This document shows positions 3,198-26,394 of a stretch of DNA of 32,000 nt, one piece after another. The translations under genes and the position numbers were made by a program. The notes under the pieces were generated by a model. It did not search any database. It was not told the DNA's origin and saw only the letters and a program-made list of their open reading frames with translations. The stretch is from an uncultured Chloroflexia bacterium (GTDB taxonomy: Bacteria; Chloroflexota; Anaerolineae; Anaerolineales; Anaerolineaceae). The stretch lies in assembly GCA_963704755.1 (NCBI GenBank), contig OY969938.1, positions 1,530,001-1,562,000 on the forward strand, written 5' to 3'. Every line of letters begins with the position of its first letter. Within the stretch, counting starts at the first letter, position 1.

Positions 3198-3398
3198 ATG
3201 TCATTCCGTAACGAATCAAGCATCGATCGTATCATCCGGGTTGTCGTGGGTGCGGCTTTATTGGCCTTAGGTTGGGGTGGGTTGGTCTCAGGTATCCCTG
3301 GGACAATTTTGAGCATCGTTGGCGTGCTCGCGCTGGTCACCGGCGTGGTTGGCTTTTGCCCGGCTTACGCCCTGCTGAAAGTACGCACCAACAAATAG
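3198..3398 (+). CDS. DUF2892 (YgaP-like) small two-helix membrane protein
   Basis: Sequence IDRIIRVVVGAALLALGW...VTGVVGFCPAYALL matches the DUF2892 pattern, including GFCPxY. GGAGGA at 3185-3190 lies 7 nt before ATG 3198. The TTG at 3183 in the ORF track is unlikely to be the start. Confidence 0.7.
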   Translation: MSFRNESSIDRIIRVVVGAALLALGWGGLVSGIPGTILSIVGVLALVTGVVGFCPAYALLKVRTNK

Positions 3399-3442
3399 CA
3401 CTTCCAGGGGAGGCCATCATCAACCACGTACAATATCGCCAA

Positions 3443-3940
3443 ATGTTAACCCGCAAAAAGCTACCGGTCCTGGTGGAATTCTGGGCACCCTGGTGTATGC
3501 CCTGTAAAAGCATGGCCCCTTTGATCCAGGCAGCCGGGGAAAAGCACAAGGACCGCGTCGAAGTCTGGAAGATCAACGCCGACCAGAACCCCGAGCTGCT
3601 GCGCGCGTTGGGTATCCGCGGCATACCAACCATGCTGGGCTACCGCCAGGGCGAGGAAGTTCTGCGTAAAACCGGGGCTGTGACGGCCGGTACCCTGGAC
3701 AAGCTCTTCTCGGCGCTGGCCGAGGGCAAAGAAGTGCCCAGCGGGCCGGAGCCCATCGCCCGCGCCCTGCGGATCGTTGTTGCGTTGTCGCTGGGTGTAC
3801 TTGGCTTCACCCAGGGTCCCAGTTATTGGCTGCTGGCACTGGGTGCCCTGGTCCTGATCTGGGCGTTTTACGACCGCCTGGCAGCAATCAAAGCGCTCAA
3901 ACCGCTGCTGGCCAGGTCGCGTTCACAGAATAAAGATTGA
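3443..3940 (+). CDS. Thioredoxin-domain protein (WCMPC) with a C-terminal two-helix membrane anchor
   Basis: Trx core is PVLVEFWAPWCMPCKSMAP...GIRGIPT. The C-terminal segment RIVVALSLGVLGF...WLLALGALVLIWAF is hydrophobic and resembles DUF2892. The first ATG (3443) has no Shine-Dalgarno (SD) sequence. A GGGGAGG at 3407-3413 precedes in-frame ATC codons at 3416 and 3419, so the true start is uncertain. Confidence 0.7.
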   Translation: MLTRKKLPVLVEFWAPWCMPCKSMAPLIQAAGEKHKDRVEVWKINADQNPELLRALGIRGIPTMLGYRQGEEVLRKTGAVTAGTLDKLFSALAEGKEVPSGPEPIARALRIVVALSLGVLGFTQGPSYWLLALGALVLIWAFYDRLAAIKALKPLLARSRSQNKD

Positions 3941-5903: not shown

Positions 5904-5960
5904 CCGGGGGTTGAGGGCATGGCGCTGGCTGTCTTGTCGTCCAGGGAACGAGTCGCCTTT

Positions 5961-6241
5961 TTCCCTATCTTCTCCCCTGCCAATTCAGGCATTAGCCCCC
6001 GGCTTCGAAAGCCGGGCTACGTGTTCCGCCCTCATTGACTTATTGCCTTGTTCCCTATCTTCTCTTCTGCATATTCAGGCATTAGACCCGGCTTCGAAAG
6101 CCGGACTACGCTTTCCGCCCTCATCGATTTATTGCCTTATTCCCTATCTTCTCTTCTGCATATTCAGGCATTAGACCCGGCTTCGAAAGCCGGGCTACAC
6201 GTACCACCCTCATCGCCTCGTTGCCTCGTCGACTTATTGCC
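5961..6241. repeat. Tandem repeat, 90/89-bp unit, about 3 copies
   Basis: Units are 5961-6050, 6051-6139 and 6140 to about 6241; the third carries an extra cctcgttgcctcgt segment. Each unit contains the hairpin cccggcttcgaaagccggg. Confidence 0.9.
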
Positions 6242-6246
6242 TAATC

Positions 6247-6301
6247 TCTATTCTCTATTCTCTACTCTCTACTCTCTACTCTCTATTCTCTACTCTCTTT
6301 C
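6247..6301. repeat. 7-nt microsatellite TCTAYTC, about 7.5 units
   Basis: The units tctattc and tctactc repeat head to tail. The array overlaps the last codons and the TAG stop (6283-6285) of the histidine kinase on the opposite strand. Confidence 0.9.
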
Positions 6302-7545
6302 TTCTCCCCAAGCACAAACGTAAAACACGTCCCCTTGGCCAGCTCGCTTTCGGCCCAGATGCGCCCACCGTGGGCGTTGATGATCCCGCGGGCGATGGCC
6401 AGGCCCAGGCCGGCCCCGCCGGTCGAGCGATTGCGCGATTTATCCCCCCGGTAGAAACGCTCGAACACCCGCGGCAAATCTTCCGGGCTGATACCTTCCC
6501 CGCTGTCGCATACCCGCACCGCCACCATGTCGCCCTCCCGCTGGGCGCAGATCGTCACCGACCCGCCCGTCGGGGTATGCCGTAAGGCATTGCTGACCAG
6601 GTTCGACAGCACCTGGCCGATGCGCTGGCCATCGATCCAGACCGGGTCCACGTCCGGGTCGGCCGAACCGCTCAACGCTACCTGCTGGCGCCGGGCCAGC
6701 TCCGAAAAGCTCTCGATCGTGTCCGAGATCAGGTCACCCAGTGAATTGTCCTGGCAGTCCAGCTTCAGCCCGCCCGCGTCCATTTGCGAGATCTCGAACA
6801 GGTCATCGATCAGGTGCGAAAGCGAGCGTACGTCCCGCTGGGCGGTTTGCAGATAGCGCTGGACCGTCTCGGGTTCGTCCACTACCCCATCTCCCAGCGC
6901 TTCCAGGATGGCGCGGATCGAAGTGAGCGGTGTGCGCAGGTCGTGGCTGACCCAGGCGATCAGGTCGCGTTGCAGGCTGTCCAGCTCGCGCTTTTTCTGT
7001 TCAACCGCCTCCAATTGGGCGGTCATGGCGTTGAAGTCCAGCCCCAGGCGGGCCATTTCATCCTGCCCGCGCACCGGCACCCGCACCGAAAGGTCTCCGC
7101 GGGCAATTTCGCGGGCCGCCTGGCCCAGCACCAGGATCCGGTCGGTGATCGCCTCGGTGACAAAATAGCCCACCGACAGGGCAATGCCGGTCGCAAATAC
7201 CAGCAGCACCGTGGCTAACAGTAAATCGTGCCGGCTGGCGAACATCATCCGCGCCGTGACCCACACGTTGAGGAAAACCACCAGCCCGGCCAGTAAATAG
7301 CCCAGCATCAAGGTCCAGCGGATGCCCGGCGAACGGTAGATCCACCCCAGGCGATAAGCCAGATAAGCCGCCGCGACCGAGATGAACGCAGTCACCCCCA
7401 TCAAGGCCAGCATCAAAGCAAAATCCTGGATCGGTGGGTGCATCAACAGGACGAACAGGGCCAGCCCGACGGCCAGCGGGAACAAAAAACTGCTCAGAAA
7501 GCGCAACAGCAGGGCCGGGCGTTGATTAATTTGAATGGTTTGCAT
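6283..7545 (-). CDS. Sensor histidine kinase (4 TM segments, HAMP, HisKA, HATPase_c)
   Basis: H-box is VSHDLRTPLTSI, N-box LVSNALRHTP, G-boxes DSGEGI and GGAGLGLAI. There are four N-terminal hydrophobic segments with connecting loops of 11 aa or less. ATG 7545 lies 7 nt after the response regulator stop, and GAGGGGA overlaps that stop. Confidence 0.85.
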   Translation of the reverse strand: MQTIQINQRPALLLRFLSSFLFPLAVGLALFVLLMHPPIQDFALMLALMGVTAFISVAAAYLAYRLGWIYRSPGIRWTLMLGYLLAGLVVFLNVWVTARMMFASRHDLLLATVLLVFATGIALSVGYFVTEAITDRILVLGQAAREIARGDLSVRVPVRGQDEMARLGLDFNAMTAQLEAVEQKKRELDSLQRDLIAWVSHDLRTPLTSIRAILEALGDGVVDEPETVQRYLQTAQRDVRSLSHLIDDLFEISQMDAGGLKLDCQDNSLGDLISDTIESFSELARRQQVALSGSADPDVDPVWIDGQRIGQVLSNLVSNALRHTPTGGSVTICAQREGDMVAVRVCDSGEGISPEDLPRVFERFYRGDKSRNRSTGGAGLGLAIARGIINAHGGRIWAESELAKGTCFTFVLGEKKESRE

Positions 7546-7552
7546 GGTCCCC

Positions 7553-8239
7553 TCACGGTTCGAAGCGATAGCCCACCCCCCATATGGTCACCAGGTGGCG
7601 TGGATTGGCCGAATCCTGCTCGATTTTCTCGCGCAGCCGGCGGATGTGCACTGTGACCGTGCTCGGATCGATGTATTCAGCCAGCCCCCAAATCGATTCG
7701 AGCAGTTGGTCGCGGGTAAACACCTGGCGGGGGTGGCGGGCCAGGTGCAAGAGCAGGTCGAATTCTCGCGCGGTCAGGTTGATTTCTTTGCTGTTGACGC
7801 ATACCACCCGCGTCTGCGGATCGATGCTCAGGTCGTTGTGCGTCAGCGGTGTGGAAGGCTTTTCCACCGGCGGCGTCGTCCGGCGCAGCACAGCCCGCAC
7901 CCGGCTGACCAGCTCCTGGGGGCTGAATGGCTTGGTCACGTAATCGTCCGCGCCGATCTCCAGCCCGGCGATACGATCCATCTCGGAAGAGCGCGCGGTC
8001 AGCATGATGATCGGCACGTCGCTGCGCGCCCGCAGCCAGTCGGTGATCTCCAACCCGCTCGCGCCTGGCAGCATCAGGTCCAGGATGAGCAGGTCCGGCA
8101 GCTTTGTTTCCAGTTCGGCTAATGCCAGGTGGCCGTCGGCAATGACGGTCACCTGGAAGCCGGCCCGCCGCAAATACAGACTGACCACCTCACCCACGCT
8201 GGGTTCGTCCTCGACTACCAGAATATTTGTCTCGTTCAT
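7553..8239 (-). CDS. OmpR/PhoB-family response regulator
   Basis: The receiver domain starts MNETNILVVEDE, with LILDLMLPG and DDYVTKPF. The C-terminal winged helix ends VGYRF. The start was moved to ATG 8239; the 5' extension in the ORF track overlaps msrQ. Confidence 0.9.
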   Translation of the reverse strand: MNETNILVVEDEPSVGEVVSLYLRRAGFQVTVIADGHLALAELETKLPDLLILDLMLPGASGLEITDWLRARSDVPIIMLTARSSEMDRIAGLEIGADDYVTKPFSPQELVSRVRAVLRRTTPPVEKPSTPLTHNDLSIDPQTRVVCVNSKEINLTAREFDLLLHLARHPRQVFTRDQLLESIWGLAEYIDPSTVTVHIRRLREKIEQDSANPRHLVTIWGVGYRFEP

Positions 8240-8916
8240 GCCAGTTTTTCCCGTACCGGAGTTGCTTTGCGAAAGGGTCCGCGGAACCGCCGCACGAAGC
8301 GCTGCCCGACACCCGAAAGGGTCTTCCGCACTGCCGGGATACGCATGACCATGAAGATCGTCAGCGCGATCACCGCCAGCAGGGGCTTCCAGATATTCCC
8401 GCGCAGGGCCAGCAGGTTGCCTTTGACCACCCAGGCCAGGTGCAGCACAGCCGCTCCGGCGGCAAAATAGACCAGGGTGTGCAATTTCTTCCAGCCTTTG
8501 CGTAATTTTTTCTGCCACCAGACGTGCGAGGTGATGGTTAGCGGCACCATCAGCAGAATGGCAGATATCCCGGCGATCATGTAAGGCTTGTCAGCGATCG
8601 AGGCATAGATCTGGGGAAAGTCAAAACTGTAATCCCAGCCCGTGTAGGCCAACAGGTGTAAAGTGGCGTAGAAGAAAGCGTAGAGACCCAGCGGCCGGCG
8701 CAGCTTGAGCAGTTCCGGGATCTTGAAGATCGTATTGAGTGGCGTACAGGCCAGCGAGAGCAGCAGAATGACGATGGCAATGTCGCCGGTGCGTTGTTGG
8801 GCCATCTGGATCGGGTTGATGCCCAGGTAACCGTTATAGTAGGCGATCACCAGGACGATCAGCGGCAGGATGGCCAGGATGTGGGTAGCAATGTGCAGTT
8901 TTGACCAGTGTTTCAT
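8236..8916 (-). CDS. msrQ: MsrQ (YedZ-type haem-binding membrane subunit of the MsrPQ methionine sulfoxide reductase)
   Basis: Six-TM ferric-reductase-like protein with conserved His residues in the helices (THILAILP, YATLHLLAY, AAVLHLAW). It lies directly downstream of msrP with a 3-nt gap. Its TGA overlaps the response regulator ATG (ATGA at 8236-8239). Confidence 0.8.
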   Translation of the reverse strand: MKHWSKLHIATHILAILPLIVLVIAYYNGYLGINPIQMAQQRTGDIAIVILLLSLACTPLNTIFKIPELLKLRRPLGLYAFFYATLHLLAYTGWDYSFDFPQIYASIADKPYMIAGISAILLMVPLTITSHVWWQKKLRKGWKKLHTLVYFAAGAAVLHLAWVVKGNLLALRGNIWKPLLAVIALTIFMVMRIPAVRKTLSGVGQRFVRRFRGPFRKATPVREKLA

Positions 8917-8919
8917 GAC

Positions 8920-9876
8920 TTAGAAATTCGCTTTCAGGTCCATATTCGAATACATTTGGGCGACCTGGTCGCTGTAACCGTTGAACATCAAGGTGTCGAT
9001 CCGGTGTGTCTCGCCGATACGCCGTTCGGTAGCCTGTGACCAGCGCGGGTGCGGCACATTCGGGTTGACGTTGGCAAAAAAGCCGTATTCGTTGAAGGCG
9101 ATCGCCGGCCAGAAGGTCTGCGGCATGTCTGCCACAAACTCGATCTTGACCAGGGATTTGCCGCTCTTGAATCCGTACTTCCAGGGTACCACCTCTCGTA
9201 CCGGCGCGCCATCCTGGGCCGGCAGGTCTTTGCCATACAGGCCGGTGACCAGCAGGGTCAGGTCATTCATGGCCTCGTCCATACGCAGCCCTTCGACGTA
9301 GGGGAAGGGATAAAACGGGCTGCTCAGGCCGGGCATATTTTTGGGATCATCCACAGTGGTGAACTTGACGTACTTGGCGCTGGCCATGGGGTCCACCTCT
9401 TTGATCAGCAGGTTGAGCGGAAAACCGTTCCAGGGGATGACCATCGACCAGGCCTCCACGCAGCGCAGGCGGTATACCCGTTCTTCGATAGGGAACTTGC
9501 GCAGGTCGTCGATGCTGTAGGTCTTGGGGTTCTGCACCAGGCCGGAGACTTCCACCTGCCAGGGTGAGGTCGGAAAATTGGCTGCCAGGTCGGCTACCGC
9601 GCTTTTGCTCTCACTGAACTCGTAATAGTTGTTGTAATGGGTGATGTCGTAGTAGGTGTTAGCCGGCGAGCCCAGTTCATCGGTCAGGCCCTGCTGGTCG
9701 GTGGGCAGATCGGTTTCTTGCGAATTATCCCCTGCCGCTGGCGGCACGCCACAAGCGGCCAGGGCCACGCTGATCCCGGCTGTGGCGGCCAGTTTCATGA
9801 ATTTACGCCGGTTGAGATACAGGAACTCCGGAGTGATCTCCGAAGAAGGGATTTTAGGAAAACTCATTTTTGCCAT
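8920..9876 (-). CDS. msrP: MsrP (YedY-type molybdopterin methionine sulfoxide reductase catalytic subunit) with Tat signal and lipobox
   Basis: The twin-arginine motif NRRKFMKLAA is followed by LAAC|G. The body matches the YedY/sulfite-oxidase fold (YYEF, RLRCVEAWSMVIPWNGFPL, GFKSxKSLxxI). GAGG lies 7 nt before ATG 9876. ATG 9894 and ATG 9867 are alternative starts. Confidence 0.8.
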   Translation of the reverse strand: MAKMSFPKIPSSEITPEFLYLNRRKFMKLAATAGISVALAACGVPPAAGDNSQETDLPTDQQGLTDELGSPANTYYDITHYNNYYEFSESKSAVADLAANFPTSPWQVEVSGLVQNPKTYSIDDLRKFPIEERVYRLRCVEAWSMVIPWNGFPLNLLIKEVDPMASAKYVKFTTVDDPKNMPGLSSPFYPFPYVEGLRMDEAMNDLTLLVTGLYGKDLPAQDGAPVREVVPWKYGFKSGKSLVKIEFVADMPQTFWPAIAFNEYGFFANVNPNVPHPRWSQATERRIGETHRIDTLMFNGYSDQVAQMYSNMDLKANF

Positions 9877-10041
9877 TTTCTCGCCTCGTTCCATTAATAA
9901 ACTGATCCAATATATCCTGATTGTACATTAATCAGACCGTCCTGGTCGCGATAAGCTCACTTATAAGCCCTTGGAGGATTGTGGTTGTAAACGCGCTTCG
10001 CACGTTTCCAACCGCAATATTGAGAAGTATTAAGTGCTCCT

Positions 10042-10635
10042 TCACGATATCGGGCCGGGTTCGGCCAGCAGCTTTTGGATGGCCGCTTCGGTAGTTGCAT
10101 AGCTGCCTTCGCCGACGTGGGTGTAGCGGATGTGCCCGTCTTTGTCGATCAGGTACAGGCTGGGCCAGAAGTGATTGTCGTAGGCCCGCCAGGTAGCCCC
10201 GTCATTATCCTGGGTGACCGCGTAGCGGATATCCTCATCGGCGACGGCCTGCTTCAGGTTATCCAGGTCCTTCTCGAAAGAGAATTCCGGATAATGATTG
10301 GCGATGATCACCAGGCCCTGGTCGTGATAAGTGCTGTACCAGTCCTTTAAGGAAGGGATCACGTGCTGGCAGTTGATACAGCCAAACGTCCACATTTCCA
10401 GCAGCACCACCTTCCCGCGCAAATCCGCCAGGCGCAGGGGCTGATCGGTGTTGATCCATACATCGTTGGTCAGCTCGGGAGCCGCACCCAGGTCCGGCAG
10501 ATCGGCTGCGGCGGTCGCTGCGGTGGCCACCGCCTGGGCCGACGTCAGATTAGGGCTGGTATCCGCTGCCGGCTGGCCGGCGGCACAACCCGCCAGGAGG
10601 AAAGTTCCGACCAACAACCAGATGGTTTTTTTCAT
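10042..10635 (-). CDS. DipZ/TlpA-like redoxin lipoprotein (CINC active site)
   Basis: The signal peptide has lipobox LLAGC. The core is LLEMWTFGCINCQHVIP...HYPEFSFE...WPSLYLIDKDGHIRYTHVGEGSY, typical of the DipZ C-terminal thioredoxin domain. GGAGGTG lies just upstream of ATG 10635. Confidence 0.8.
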   Translation of the reverse strand: MKKTIWLLVGTFLLAGCAAGQPAADTSPNLTSAQAVATAATAAADLPDLGAAPELTNDVWINTDQPLRLADLRGKVVLLEMWTFGCINCQHVIPSLKDWYSTYHDQGLVIIANHYPEFSFEKDLDNLKQAVADEDIRYAVTQDNDGATWRAYDNHFWPSLYLIDKDGHIRYTHVGEGSYATTEAAIQKLLAEPGPIS

Positions 10636-10704
10636 GCTCACCTCCATCGATAGACTTCCAATCCGATAAATCCAAGGACCTCTGGGATCTACCGTGGAAG
10701 AAGT

Positions 10705-10755
10705 TATAGATGGGGGTTATGCGAGCGCATCGCGCACGCATAACCCCCATCTATA
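10705..10755. repeat. Perfect 19-bp-stem palindrome
   Basis: tatagatgggggttatgcg (10705-10723) pairs with cgcataacccccatctata (10737-10755) across a 13-nt loop. It lies in the divergent intergenic region. Confidence 0.85.
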
Positions 10756-11001
10756 CAACCCATCTCCGAAAATCATCTTGTGTATTGGGTGTTTCTAAAT
10801 AGATGCCAAATCGGATTGAATTTATCTTATCGTCTAAACCTTAAAGCAAGGCAAAGAGAATATTACGAAATCATTACAGAAAACCCGTCTCGTTCAGGTT
10901 TCTGTAAGAGAAAATTAAAGTCCGCGTAATAGTATTTTGTCATGATGAAGGAGCACTTCAATAATTTAATCCAAGCACCTGCTCGGCCGGATGGGAAGGA
11001 C

Positions 11002-11056
11002 TACGAATTTGAGTGGTCGGTGTGGGTTTTGCTCACGCAAACCACTCAAATTCGTA
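11002..11056. repeat. Core-1 variant palindrome, stand-alone
   Basis: tacgaatttgagtggt (11002-11017) pairs with accactcaaattcgta (11041-11056). It is related to the ccgaatttgaggtg core, with matching substitutions in both arms. Confidence 0.75.
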
Positions 11057-11111
11057 AATTCCAGGCATGAGCCCGATTAATTGGGAATACAATTGAATAA
11101 GGAGTAAAGAG

Positions 11112-11927
11112 ATGCGAAAAGGATTATTTGTAATTGTTTTGTTGTCATTGGCCCTGGCTGCCTGCCAGGCCACTCCCCAGCCGGCCAGCAGCACCGAGGC
11201 CATGATGAGCGCAGGCGCGACCAGCACCACAGCGATGATGGGAACCACGCCAGAAACCGCCATGGGGACCGAGGCTATGGGTAATGAAAGCATGGGCACG
11301 GAAACCATGGGAACCGAGGCCATGGGGACCGAGGCCATGGGAACCGAGGCCATGGGCACGGAAGCTATGGGCACGCAAGCCATGGGCACGCAAGCGATGG
11401 GAACGCAAGCGATGGGAACCGACACTATGGGCGCCACTGCCGATATGTCGATGGGTGAGACGATGGTCACCGGGACGCCGGATTTCTTCAGCACCGACCT
11501 GACCGACGTGACCAGCGGGGATACCTTCAGCCTGGCGTCCATGCAGGGTAAGGTCATTGTGGTGGAAGATATGGCACAGTGGTGCCCCACCTGCCTGGAC
11601 CAGCAGAAGCAGATCAAGGCCTTCCTCGAGCAAATGGGTATGCCGGCCGACCTGGTTGTGGTCAGCCTGGATATTGACCCCAACGAGAACGCCGCCACTC
11701 TCAAGAATTACGTGGCCACCAACGGCTTTGGCTGGCATTATGCCGTCGCCCCTGCGGCCGTGACCCGCGAGATCAGTGACAAGTTTGGCGCAGAATTCCT
11801 CAACCCGCCTTCGACCCCCATGTTCGTCATCGACCGTCACGGCGCAGTACAACTGCTGCCCTTCGGCGTCAAATCCGCCGACGACCTGGCCAAAACCGTC
11901 CAGCCTCTGCTCGACGCGGGAATGTAA
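11112..11927 (+). CDS. Thioredoxin-fold (TlpA/redoxin-like, WCPTC) lipoprotein with an N-terminal methionine-rich repeat region
   Basis: AAGGAG at 11099-11104 precedes ATG 11112. The lipobox is LALAAC. Residues 31-120 contain 19 Met, including 12 tandem MGT[EQ][AT]-type pentapeptides. The redoxin core is VIVVEDMAQWCPTC...VVVSLD...PMFVIDRHG. Confidence 0.8.
   Translation: MRKGLFVIVLLSLALAACQATPQPASSTEAMMSAGATSTTAMMGTTPETAMGTEAMGNESMGTETMGTEAMGTEAMGTEAMGTEAMGTQAMGTQAMGTQAMGTDTMGATADMSMGETMVTGTPDFFSTDLTDVTSGDTFSLASMQGKVIVVEDMAQWCPTCLDQQKQIKAFLEQMGMPADLVVVSLDIDPNENAATLKNYVATNGFGWHYAVAPAAVTREISDKFGAEFLNPPSTPMFVIDRHGAVQLLPFGVKSADDLAKTVQPLLDAGM
11262..11441 (+). repeat. In-frame 15-bp tandem repeat, 12 units, inside the CDS
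   Basis: Units of the form atggg[a/c/g]ac[c/g]ga[g/a]gc[c/t] start every 15 nt from 11262 to 11427. Confidence 0.95.
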
Positions 11928-11933
11928 AAAACT

Positions 11934-12087
11934 TGTGTCAAGTGTCGGGGGTCACGAAGTGCTTCCGTGTTACAGTGTTACAGTGATCCAGTGCCTTGGG
12001 GTTGCAAGCGAGCACACGATAAACCAACTCACTGAAAAACGGAAACACTGAAACACCGAGACACGCCGTGACACCCGATACCTGACC
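11934..12087. repeat. S2-family foldback (imperfect inverted repeat of GT-rich and CA-rich satellite arms)
   Basis: The left arm (about 11934-11995) reads gtgtcaagtgtcgggggtcacg...gtgttacagtgttacagtg. The right arm (about 12021-12087) reads ...cggaaacactgaaacaccgagacacgccgtgacacccgatacc. The left arm shares gtgtcaagtgtcggg with 26325-26339. Confidence 0.7.
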
Positions 12088-12140: not shown

Positions 12141-12815
12141 ATGTTTACCAACGCCCTCACTTCTATCACCATCGGCCTGCTGGCTACCACCAGCCCGTGC
12201 GTTTTTCCGCTCTACCCGGGCTACCTGGCCTACCTGAGCGGCGGGCAGGAGTCGTTACAGCACAGCAAAGGCCGTTACCTGCTCGGCTTCCTGGTCCTGG
12301 CCGGGGTGTTGACTATGATGGTCGCCCTGGGCGGGCTGATTGCCGCCCTGGCCATCCCCATCGGCAGCGCCTTGGCTGTGGTGGTTCCCCTGGCCGACGC
12401 CCTGATCTTCGCCCTAGGCATCCTGCTGCTGCTCGACAAGAACCCCTTCAAGGCCCTGCCGACCCTGCAGGCACCGGTCGTGTCCAACCCCTATTTCAAC
12501 GCCTATATCTACGGGCTACTCTACGGACCGATCGCCTTACCCTGCTCAGGCCCCCTGGTTGTCAGTATCTTCGCCATCTCGCTTTCGGCCGCGGATGCCA
12601 TCGGGCGATTGACCGTTTTCCTGTGGTTCGGCCTCGGGTTTGGCCTGCCGCTGCTGGCCCTATCCTTCCTGGCCGGCGCCACCCAGCGCTGGATCACCCG
12701 CCAGTTTGCCCTGCACAGCCTCTGGATCAACCGGGTCGCCGGCCTGCTCCTGGTCGGCATCGGGATCATCGATTTTGTGACCAATTGGCCTTTTTTGAAG
12801 GCCGCCTGGTTTTAA
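12141..12815 (+). CDS. ccdA: CcdA/DsbD-family transmembrane thiol:disulfide electron transporter
   Basis: Six-TM protein with the two conserved Cys-Pro motifs (TSPCVFPLYPGYL and LPCSGPLV). Confidence 0.85.
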   Translation: MFTNALTSITIGLLATTSPCVFPLYPGYLAYLSGGQESLQHSKGRYLLGFLVLAGVLTMMVALGGLIAALAIPIGSALAVVVPLADALIFALGILLLLDKNPFKALPTLQAPVVSNPYFNAYIYGLLYGPIALPCSGPLVVSIFAISLSAADAIGRLTVFLWFGLGFGLPLLALSFLAGATQRWITRQFALHSLWINRVAGLLLVGIGIIDFVTNWPFLKAAWF

Positions 12816-12820
12816 AAAGC

Positions 12821-12861
12821 GGGTGTTTTGTGTGTGTGCTCCGCACACACACAAAACACCC
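12821..12861. terminator. Core-2 variant perfect palindrome, probable terminator of ccdA
   Basis: gggtgttttgtgtgtgtgc (12821-12839), loop tcc, then gcacacacacaaaacaccc (12843-12861). It starts 6 nt after the ccdA stop. The downstream T-tract (ctttcc) is only weak. Confidence 0.55.
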
Positions 12862-12895
12862 TTTCCACGTAGAATTGCTTGGCAATCAAGAAATA

Positions 12896-12934
12896 AAGGG
12901 CTATTTTGCCGGTGATACCGGCAAAATAGCCCTT
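12896..12934. repeat. Perfect 18-bp-stem palindrome
   Basis: aagggctattttgccggt, loop gat, then accggcaaaatagccctt. Confidence 0.85.
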
Positions 12935-12967
12935 CTTCATTTGTACCTGTTCAGCCTAACGAGAAAG

Positions 12968-12999: not shown

Positions 13000-13740
13000 T
13001 TACCTGCGCCGGAAAACGCCCAGCAAAATGGTTGCACCGACCAGGATAAGCAGGGTCGGTCCCAGCAGGTTCCAGTTGAGGCCCAGAAAGGCCACTGCCC
13101 CGGTCGCCCCGGTCAGCAGGCCAAAGAACACCAGCGAGATGACCGAACCATTGACGCGCTGTTGGCGTACGGCCACGATCAGTGCATTGATGATTGCGCC
13201 GACGGCCGGGATGAAAATGCCAACCGCCCACCATTGGTAAGGACCAAAGTAGGTTTGCAGGGTGAACCAATTTAAGTTTTTGCCCAGGAAACCCGCGCCA
13301 ACGTACATCACGCCCAATCCCAGCCAGAAAGCCATGTTGATCAGCCCGGTGCCTTTGTGTTTCTGGCCGGTCTCGATCCCGTCCAGCAGCAGGGCAAAAC
13401 CGGGCACAATGACCATCAGCGGCCACCAGTAAAACCAGTCCAGCCCGAACAGGAACATAAACGCCACCGTGAAGATGACCAGCGCCGAACCAAAGGCGCC
13501 CAGCGTACCGGCCGTCACCCGGCCGTGTTTTTGTACATCATAAACGGCCCCGCTGAGGGTGCCAAATGCCGGAACCAGGATAAACAGGGCCCACCAGTTA
13601 TAGCTCGGGCCAAGCCAACCGGCCTGTTGGGCAAAAATGATCAGCCCGCCCAGGATCAAAACCAGGCCCCACCAGGCGCCGCCCAGGGGTCGTTTGGTGA
13701 CCTTGCGGTCCTCGTCTGAATAAGAAGTTGGTTGTTCCAT
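13000..13740 (-). CDS. Polytopic membrane protein of unknown function
   Basis: 246 aa with about 8 hydrophobic, Trp/Gly-rich segments and internally repetitive architecture. I did not recognise a family. Confidence 0.55.
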   Translation of the reverse strand: MEQPTSYSDEDRKVTKRPLGGAWWGLVLILGGLIIFAQQAGWLGPSYNWWALFILVPAFGTLSGAVYDVQKHGRVTAGTLGAFGSALVIFTVAFMFLFGLDWFYWWPLMVIVPGFALLLDGIETGQKHKGTGLINMAFWLGLGVMYVGAGFLGKNLNWFTLQTYFGPYQWWAVGIFIPAVGAIINALIVAVRQQRVNGSVISLVFFGLLTGATGAVAFLGLNWNLLGPTLLILVGATILLGVFRRR

Positions 13741-26143: not shown

Positions 26144-26394
26144 CGGTGTGTCAGTGATTCGGTGGTTCGGTGTGTCAGTGTGTCAGTGATTCGGTGGTTC
26201 GGTGTGTCAGTGTGTCAGTGTTTCGGTGTTTCGGTGTTTCGGTGTTTCGGTGTTTCGGTGTGTCGGTGTGTCGGTGTTTCGGTGTTTCGGTGTGTCGGTG
26301 TGTCGGTGGTTCGGTGTTTCAGGTGTCAAGTGTCGGGTGTCAGGGGTCGGGTGTCAGGGGTCAGGTGCCAGGGGTCGCTGGTCGGGGGTCGGGT
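26144..26394. repeat. S2 satellite array, 8-nt unit GGTGTKTC and variants, about 30 units
   Basis: The run reads ...ggtgtttcggtgtttcggtgtttcggtgtgtcggtgtgtc... It degenerates at the left into cagtgattcggtggttc blocks and at the right into ggggtc and gggtgtca units. It is strongly G/T-rich and A-poor on the + strand. Confidence 0.9.

Follow-up and report, generated by a model that had tools for sequence, protein, structure and literature searches.

INTRODUCTION

Two kinds of described system come closest to the locus analyzed here, one centered on methionine (Met)-rich peptides and MsrP and the other on thioredoxin (Trx)-fold lipoproteins and CcdA. MrpX of Azospira suillum, in which 20% of residues are Met and 44% are charged, is encoded in a yedYZ-mrpX operon and is oxidized by hypochlorous acid (HOCl), and its authors proposed that YedY/MsrP re-reduces it (PMC4436054). 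BcrX of Brucella melitensis is an MXKDX repeat protein from the HOCl-induced bcrXQP operon (PMC8315932). MsrP of Rhodobacter sphaeroides prefers unfolded substrates with clustered Met and reduces methionine sulfoxide (MetO) more poorly when Thr or Pro lies on its C-terminal side (bioRxiv 10.1101/243626), while in Escherichia coli msrPQ is induced by copper stress and CusF is repaired by MsrP (PMC9302797). The second kind is represented by the Etrx1/2-CcdA1/2-MsrAB2 proteins of Streptococcus pneumoniae, in which surface Trx lipoproteins contribute to extracellular oxidative-stress resistance (PMC3914529). Here we describe a gene at positions 11112 to 11927 (plus strand) of a 32,000-nucleotide stretch, hereafter the window, of contig OY969938.1 from an uncultured Chloroflexia bacterium of the Anaerolineaceae. 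Its product, the target protein, is a predicted lipoprotein in which a Met-rich tether leads into a Trx-like domain, and the gene lies next to ccdA and near msrPQ.

The tether resembles MrpX and BcrX in being an exported, disordered-looking sequence with about 20% Met plus polar and charged residues, and in the window it likewise places Met first in a period of five. It is also genetically linked to msrPQ and to a dedicated stress regulator, here through a divergent operon, a conserved two-component system (TCS), and a promoter box, and the proposed role, that of a sacrificial HOCl sink recycled by MsrP, would be the same. However, MrpX is a free, small periplasmic protein encoded in the msrPQ operon, with an extracytoplasmic function sigma factor (SigF/BcrS) as regulator, whereas the target tract is a lipoprotein tether fused to a CXXC thioredoxin domain, in a ccdA operon with a TCS, in Chloroflexota. 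Nor does the tract consist almost exclusively of Met and charged residues, being rich in M/T/A/G/E in the window and in M/A/E/T/D/P across the family, and most family members carry 8-residue, MM-containing units rather than the MXKDX units of MrpX and BcrX. The Etrx system, which has equivalents in Streptococcus gordonii and Fusobacterium, shares with the target locus CcdA-fed surface Trx-fold lipoproteins beside a Met sulfoxide reductase, and two Trx lipoproteins per cluster. Etrx1 (4hqs) is among both the structural and the sequence matches of the target, the sequence similarity being weak (E about 1e-6). The reductase partner there is MsrAB, whereas at the target locus it is the molybdoenzyme MsrP with MsrQ, independent of thiol electrons, and the Etrx proteins have no Met-rich tether.

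An initial annotation of the window had offered a membrane-tethered Met sink or a Cu(I)-handling module as alternatives for the fusion, which it did not recognize as described. Of these we favor the former and put the probability at about 0.5 that the target is a CcdA-fed extracytoplasmic thiol reductase whose tether would act, by analogy with MrpX, as a sacrificial Met sink recycled by MsrP/MsrQ. The in silico basis for this reading comprises the protein architecture with its predicted extracytoplasmic location, the predicted disorder of the tether, Met enrichment throughout the family, synteny, and a shared promoter box. The components and concepts (MrpX with MsrPQ, Etrx with CcdA) are known. 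What is new is the Met-rich tether on a CcdA-fed Trx lipoprotein, the divergent TCS-tlpA2-msrPQ arrangement, the lipoprotein form of MsrP, and conservation across a clade; no description of the fusion or of the conserved cluster was found in the literature, our coverage of which was incomplete. A second Trx lipoprotein, a conserved TCS, a link to the MXKDX/MrpX family, and the distinction between a lineage-specific MGTEA unit and a conserved Met richness, all reported below, had no place in the initial annotation.

RESULTS

A Met-rich, disordered tether on a predicted lipoprotein

The target open reading frame (ORF), whose coordinates include the stop codon, encodes 271 amino acids and is supported by the ORF listing, its translation, Pfam, and homologues, 425 of them in the protein collection searched. 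An AAGGAG ribosome-binding site lies 8 nt before the ATG start. The N terminus, MRKGLFVIVLLSLALAAC, comprises a signal peptide and lipobox in residues 1 to 18 (11112-11165, plus strand), and the lipobox L-A-A-C, in the context MRKGLFVIVLLSLA-LAAC, fits the lipoprotein pattern [LVI][ASTVI][GAS]C. Cys18, the residue expected to be lipidated, is invariant in an alignment of 57 homologues, and residues 2 to 16 are modeled as a signal helix by AlphaFold2 (AF2), which was run on the target with the family alignment as input. The protein is thus predicted from its sequence to be a bacterial lipoprotein located outside the cytoplasm.

Between the lipid anchor and the folded domain stands a tether rich in Met, Thr, Ala, Gly, and Glu (residues 19 to 121; 11166-11474, plus strand), whose extent follows from composition, the AF2 model, and orthologues. 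As the initial annotation had counted, it holds 19 Met, all within residues 31 to 120, where they make up 21% of the sequence; against a baseline of 2.5%, the mean of nine other proteins of the window, the binomial probability of such a tract is about 1e-12. AF2 gives residues ~20 to 120 no secondary structure, with a predicted local distance difference test (pLDDT) score of about 50, so the structure prediction called for at the outset points to disorder. Residues 121 to 270, by comparison, form a thioredoxin fold with pLDDT of 93 to 98.

Within residues 51 to 106, Met recurs at exact five-residue intervals, corresponding to 12 in-phase 15-bp units encoding MGxxx (11262-11441, plus strand; Tandem Repeats Finder [TRF] and unit table). 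The initial annotation had all 12 as perfect MGT[EQ][AT] units; the number and phase stand, but the pattern fits 9 of the 12, the remaining three being MGNES, MGTDT, and MGATA. TRF itself reports a period of 15 with 10.5 copies and 81% matches at 11259-11416. At the DNA level just two units are identical, adjacent units differ by 1 to 7 nt, and the same peptides are spelled with different codons in neighboring units. Because the DNA is degenerate and identical peptides use different codons, the array is not a fresh or pure product of slippage, and the proneness to slippage once suggested for all of it is confined to two near-perfect cores of roughly 45 bp each (units 4 to 6 and units 8 to 10). 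Copy number does differ sharply between the array and those of the closest relatives.

The NCBIfam model TIGR02953 (penta_MxKDx) aligns with residues 49 to 106 of the target at 17.3 bits (cut-off, 41; E = 0.0035), and 5 of the 57 family members match it at E <= 0.01, the best at 2e-7. A classical pentapeptide-repeat protein (A(D/N)LXX beta-helix, PF00805) was considered and rejected, as there is no Pfam match at E <= 0.01 and the tract is modeled as low-confidence coil. Two antisense ORFs, 11033-11704 and 11145-11852 on the minus strand, are unsupported and are by-products of the repeat. A protein search with the tract alone, for other domains bearing the same tether, gave 2 matches, both frameshifted fragments of the target family, and is uninformative because low complexity defeats such a search. 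In relatives P0121 and P0061, which lie on one 319,733-bp contig, and in P0122, the gene is split or frameshifted where the Met-rich tract ends, with one ORF of 84 aa called for the tract and another of 153 aa for the Trx domain; this could stem from a sequencing error within the repeat or from genuine frameshifting.

A thioredoxin-fold domain of its own kind

The remainder of the protein, residues 122 to 271 (11475-11924, plus strand), is a TlpA/ResA-like thioredoxin-fold domain, as the initial annotation had proposed, and is identified by Pfam, AF2, Foldseek, and invariant residues. Residues 130 to 247 score above cut-off with Pfam Redoxin (PF08534; 36.4 bits against 26.6) and AhpC-TSA (PF00578; 30.8 against 26). 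The active-site sequence W157-C158-P-T-C161 (11580-11594) directly precedes helix 159-175 in the AF2 model; C158, C161, and P236 are invariant among the 57 aligned sequences, and P236, in NPPSTP, is likely the cis-Pro. Foldseek on the target model returned ResA, TlpA-like proteins, DsbE, Etrx1, and BsSco as top matches, ResA and TlpA-like proteins at a probability of 1.00, and the nearest solved structures of the domain are those of ResA, TlpA-like proteins, DsbE, DsbF, and pneumococcal Etrx1.

The likeness to TlpA, ResA, and DsbE (CcmG) extends to the fold (target-normalized TM-scores of about 0.8 for ResA), the CXXC motif, the cis-Pro loop, the membrane anchor, and a reductant supply of the CcdA/DsbD type. 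The equivalog scores in NCBIfam set the target apart from all of them, falling at about 20 bits where 123 to 230 would be required: TlpA, 20.6 against 230; ResA, 19.1 against 170; DsbE, 16.9 against 123; and StoA, 17.7 against 210. The 57 family members are likewise far below these cut-offs. The family has signatures of its own, GKVVLVE, LDIDPNE, and QFLNPPSTP, in addition to the Met-rich tether, and a crude motif screen of the 81 loci surveyed below gave no linked genes for cytochrome c maturation or CuA assembly. Identification as a Sco1/SenC copper chaperone was rejected, since that requires CXXXC and a His for the cis-Pro, while the target has CXXC (WCPTC) and keeps an invariant TP236; the match to BsSco is at the level of the fold only, with a TM-score to the target of 0.61.

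Met richness is conserved across Chloroflexota

To avoid bias from the tract, species-representative genomes were scanned with motifs of the Trx domain alone (LDIDPNE, QFLNPPSTP, and GKVVLVE), and the best 80 of 296 relatives were taken with the window as a survey of 81 loci. Virtually all of these 80 belong to Chloroflexota, for the most part to Anaerolineae, and the cultured species Levilinea saccharolytica and Pelolinea submarina are among them. Two loci, L036 and L053, carry the labels of metagenome-assembled genomes from Oscillospiraceae and Omnitrophota; the layout, spacings, and identities of L053 equal those of L045, from Anaerolineales, and suggest contamination during binning, not a range of the family beyond Chloroflexota.

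Across the 81 loci, median tether length is 60 aa (range, 15 to 232) and median Met content 18.8%, and the tether reaches at least 10% Met in 75 of them, so orthologues do not generally lack the tract. Taken together, the tether residues are M 16.8%, A 14.9%, E 14.7%, T 11.3%, D 10.1%, P 8.3%, K 4.9%, and H 1.0%. In the same clusters, the TlpA2 lipoproteins, which are paralogues, have linkers with 1.9% Met, and the enrichment is specific to the tether of the target family by this comparison.

A Met-rich N-terminal tract is present in almost all of the top 120 homologues, with repeat units as different as AMMEKPTE, MTDDA, MMHDTPTPD, and MGTEA, and the tracts of the top homologues all finish with a conserved MM-x-PAWF junction ahead of the fold. 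The MGTEA unit is lineage specific: a 71%-identical relative has about three of them, and a 58%-identical relative has other units, although its genes are ordered as in the window. Even among the close relatives P0001, P0002, and P0003, the type of unit and the number of copies shift rapidly, and a subset of orthologues carries MMH motifs. What is conserved in the tether is composition, namely, a Met-rich, acidic, and disordered character, and not sequence, unit, or length.

A conserved cluster with CcdA, MsrPQ, and a second thioredoxin lipoprotein

The initial annotation had placed ccdA next to the target and msrPQ 1.2 kb away, and both placements hold. The ccdA gene (12141-12815, plus strand; Pfam DsbD_TM, 37.2 bits), encoding a membrane electron conduit with two PC-motif cysteines (SPCVFP and LPCSGP), is the next gene, about 214 bp 3' of the target. 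On the opposite strand, a divergent operon, tlpA2-msrP-msrQ followed by a response regulator and a histidine kinase, is headed by tlpA2 (10042-10647, minus strand; Pfam AhpC-TSA, Redoxin, and Thioredoxin_8), which lies between msrP and the target and encodes a second TlpA/ResA-like lipoprotein with a CINC active site and a Met-poor linker. The molybdoenzyme Met-sulfoxide reductase gene msrP (8920-9894, minus strand) starts 1,218 bp from the target start, and its product scores 433 bits with the NCBIfam MsrP equivalog (cut-off, 207); the gene for its heme-binding membrane partner, msrQ (8236-8916, minus strand), reaches 143.6 bits (cut-off, 130). The OmpR/PhoB-family response regulator (7553-8239, minus strand; Pfam) has a start abutting the msrQ stop, and the histidine kinase (6283-7545, minus strand; Pfam HAMP, HisKA, and HATPase_c) has an N terminus of four transmembrane helices and no extracytoplasmic domain.

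MsrP of the window has a twin-arginine translocation (Tat) motif (RRKF) followed by a lipobox (LAAC), and Tat motif and lipobox occur together in 42 of 43 MsrP orthologues, from which MsrP in this clade is predicted to be a Tat-exported lipoprotein and not a soluble periplasmic enzyme. Because MsrP is also Tat exported and lipoboxed, all three extracytoplasmic proteins of the cluster, the proposed recycling enzyme and its proposed substrate among them, would be tethered to the membrane.

Linkage was counted among loci with enough flanking sequence, and it bears out the association with ccdA and msrP. The ccdA gene lies immediately 3' of the target orthologue in 73 of 74 loci, and an orthologous OmpR-type regulator (63 to 71% identity) is divergent and adjacent in 59 of 72. 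The kinase is linked in 48 of 58 loci, and within 6 kb of the target orthologue msrP, msrQ, and tlpA2 are found in 41, 40, and 41 of 58, respectively. The usual order is RR-HK-tlpA2-msrP-msrQ (RR, response regulator; HK, histidine kinase), divergent from MetTrx-ccdA (MetTrx, the target orthologue); in the window and a near relative, the TCS sits at the opposite end of the operon, after msrPQ, and the gene order of the window recurs in the closest relative with a long contig. Unsupervised clustering of neighboring ORFs recovered these same families plus a DsbA-like protein (19 loci). The DsbA-like gene (FSDFQCPYC) lies just past msrQ, some 4.9 kb upstream of the target orthologue (4308-5141 in L074, for example), and represents a third thiol-redox protein in part of the family; it is absent from that position in the window.

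A candidate regulatory site between the divergent operons

A consensus, TTCAtACTTTCGTAAg..TTtGGCAGG..TTTcGTAAG, is found upstream of the target orthologue in 21 loci, between the divergent operons. Its GTAA half-sites are spaced 22 bp apart, a spacing typical of OmpR/PhoB-type binding sites, and an oppositely oriented ATTACGAAAtcCTTAC often stands upstream of the GTAA box in this set. The best match to the position weight matrix (PWM) in the whole window falls at 10838-10877 on the minus strand, with a score of 9.6, where 20 shuffles reached no more than 4.4. The copy on the plus strand, which faces the target, has a low score with the whole PWM (-6.3), as its central part differs; it is accepted for one reason, namely, that its flanking GTTCAG and two GTAA half-sites preserve the exact 22-bp spacing and the architecture of the other loci. 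The candidate response-regulator binding module thus delimited (10862-10930) reads ATTACGAAATCATTAC-N14-GTTCAGGTTTCTGTAAG-N17-GTAAT, with GTAA half-sites beginning at nt 10904 and 10926, 22 bp apart. The arrangement is consistent with the divergent operons forming one regulon under the adjacent TCS.

In the kinase, the N-terminal ~130 residues include intramembrane motifs, AYRLGW and NVW..A..MFAS.HDL.LA, that are conserved in 53 orthologues and include one Met; the kinase is possibly of an intramembrane or oxidant-sensing type. Assignment of the TCS to a CusRS-, CopRS-, or HprRS-like type was rejected, there being generic OmpR/PhoB and HisKA matches only and all scores below NCBIfam cut-offs.

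Each predicted 5' leader of the divergent operons contains one strong palindrome, at 10705-10755 and 11002-11056, with arms of 24 nt at 96% complementarity and 23 nt at 87% complementarity, the second folding at -39.8 kcal/mol (z = -10.3). Both are missing from the two closest relatives and look like genome-specific palindromic elements, so they were set aside as parts of the system.

Other features of the window

The long gap of about 213 bp between the target and ccdA is filled by an 8-nt-periodic, CAC-rich stretch (11967-12064). Intergenic repeats are abundant in general and include an 8-bp tandem array, CGGTGTTT x22.8 (26144-26326), and 78-bp x2.9 (2556-2780) and 89-bp x3 (5955-6226) arrays. 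Right after ccdA, two perfect-stem, terminator-like palindromes of 19 pairs each (12821-12861 and 12895-12935) separate it from a convergent gene for a LiaF-TM membrane protein (13000-13740, minus strand) that is conserved only in near relatives. About 7 kb upstream of the target, and outside the conserved cluster, lies a gene for a 222-aa thioredoxin-domain protein (3272-3940, plus strand; Pfam Thioredoxin, 81.5 bits). The remainder of the window consists of unrelated housekeeping and transport genes.

DISCUSSION

On the reading that we favor, the target would be a lipid-anchored thiol:disulfide reductase of the TlpA/ResA type working outside the cytoplasm, kept reduced by the adjacent CcdA with electrons from cytoplasmic thioredoxin across the membrane. 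Its disordered tether of roughly 100 residues, presumably selected for very high Met content, would be a membrane-tethered counterpart of the free MrpX and BcrX. At the membrane's outer face, HOCl, chloramines, or peroxide would attack the exposed thioethers of the tether first, which would also shield the CXXC cysteines, and the resulting Met-sulfoxides would be re-reduced by the neighboring lipoprotein MsrP with electrons from MsrQ. In parallel, the Trx domain and TlpA2 may reduce oxidized cysteines of envelope proteins. Met-Trx-ccdA and tlpA2-msrP-msrQ, with the OmpR-type regulator and the intramembrane-type kinase, would then make up one envelope oxidative-damage regulon. The steps that we infer are that the tract is oxidized, that MsrP recycles it, that electrons pass through CcdA, and that the TCS exerts the regulation. 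Tethering of the sink may be needed because all its partners in this clade are lipoproteins.

Several observations weigh against this reading. The tethers of the Bellilinea loci L030 and L044 are acidic and Met poor (3 to 6% Met), and that of L031 has 15 aa and no Met, all three with msrPQ nearby; neither Trx function nor the cluster therefore depends on the Met tract. Conversely, msrPQ is absent within 6 kb in 17 of 58 loci, and the higher Met content seen with msrP nearby (0.20 versus 0.16, in loci of 20 kb or less) is non-significant (p = 0.065) and phylogenetically uncorrected. Thr and Pro, which R. sphaeroides MsrP disfavors on the C-terminal side of MetO, are abundant in the tracts. Because MsrP does not use thiols, recycling chemistry leaves the fusion to a Trx domain unexplained, and a lipoprotein tether that already existed may simply have been put to use. 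Finally, homology of the tract to MrpX is not demonstrable, because the TIGR02953 score is below cut-off; the tract would at most work like MrpX, and it is not a demonstrable member of the MrpX family.

The main rival, an unlikely one in our judgment, concerns copper. Thioether clusters of the tether would bind Cu(I) or Ag(I), the CcdA-reduced CXXC would keep Cu-binding or target cysteines reduced in the manner of ScsC, TlpA, or Sco, or would reduce Cu(II), and MsrP would keep Cu-binding Met functional, as it does for CusF. Met clusters of the MM-x6-MM and M-x4-M types could supply 3 to 4 thioethers, the MMH motifs of some orthologues would suit such a role, some family members bear a SCO1/SenC label in JGI annotations, BsSco is among the Foldseek matches, and the copper induction of msrPQ and repair of CusF by MsrP in E. 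coli (PMC9302797) offer a precedent. CusF, CopA/PcoA, CueO, and the Ctr1 "Mets" motifs share with the target Met clusters in flexible extracytoplasmic segments; there, however, Met usually occurs with His or Asp, in MXXM or MXM spacing, and in copper operons, whereas in the target family His is just 1% of tract residues and Glu, Asp, Thr, and Pro dominate. A crude regular-expression screen of the 81 loci, up to +/-10 kb, found no HMA domain, CPx P-type ATPase, or multicopper oxidase, and only one CuA-type ORF. The target lacks the Sco signature, its TCS shows no specific likeness to CusRS, CopRS, or HprRS, with all matches far below cut-offs, and the family is present in species described as strict anaerobes (Levilinea and Pelolinea). 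Strict anaerobes are unlikely to need CuA assembly. The Cu(I)-handling module raised in the initial annotation thus gained no ground.

Two further explanations, both of which we hold to be very unlikely, make the tether either more or less than a sink. In one, it would be bait for redox sensing: conversion of its hydrophobic Met to polar Met-sulfoxide would be read by the adjacent kinase, and the lipoprotein would be an accessory sensor inducing msrPQ and itself. It seems improbable, too, that the tether is the input of a new envelope redox-sensing circuit, in which the Met/Met-sulfoxide state would reflect oxidant flux against MsrPQ activity; equally doubtful is the lipoprotein as a rheostat reporting envelope Met oxidation and tuning both repair operons. 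Such sensing would fit the position of the TCS as the closest and most conserved neighbor after ccdA, with a divergent regulator in most loci, and the kinase N terminus, which consists of four transmembrane helices, has strongly conserved residues within the membrane, and lacks a sensor domain. Histidine kinases without sensor domains often rely on accessory proteins. The divergent placement, however, is equally explained by simple co-regulation, the Met-poor L031 retains the TCS, and the TCS of the window has been relocated to the end of the msrPQ operon. The other explanation makes the tether an inert spacer, a low-complexity linker grown by replication slippage whose Met has no function, on an ordinary reductase of the ResA/TlpA type serving, for example, cytochrome c maturation; we give it little credence. 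Disordered, low-complexity sequence is common in lipoprotein tethers, unit and copy number change fast among P0001, P0002, and P0003, and a few orthologues do without Met. Yet Met enrichment is kept in the great majority of species despite complete turnover of sequence and unit, the TlpA2 linkers of the same clusters stay at background, and the use of different codons for the same peptides in neighboring units speaks against recent pure slippage. As to cytochrome c maturation, no WWD-motif ORF of the CcsA/ResC or ResB/ResC type was found by the crude screen of the 81 loci up to +/-10 kb, nor was such a family among the conserved neighbors; with no resB/resC linkage found and the ResA/TlpA/DsbE/StoA scores far below cut-offs, that role lacks contextual support.

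If the tether is indeed a sink recycled by MsrPQ, scavenging of the MrpX/MsrPQ kind, so far represented only by free periplasmic peptides of Proteobacteria, would extend to another phylum and to a different physical solution, a lipid-anchored sink beside a lipid-anchored MsrP. One compact regulon would then repair both extracytoplasmic sulfur amino acids, with MsrPQ acting on Met, and CcdA with two Trx lipoproteins on Cys. The family also provides a natural set of tether variants, in which Met content runs from 0 to 29% and length from 15 to 232 residues while the rest of the protein is conserved, and this set can be used to ask whether Met content alone confers protection from oxidants. Such a system, if the reading is correct, would help to explain the oxidant tolerance of the largely anaerobic Anaerolineae in wastewater, sediments, and groundwater.

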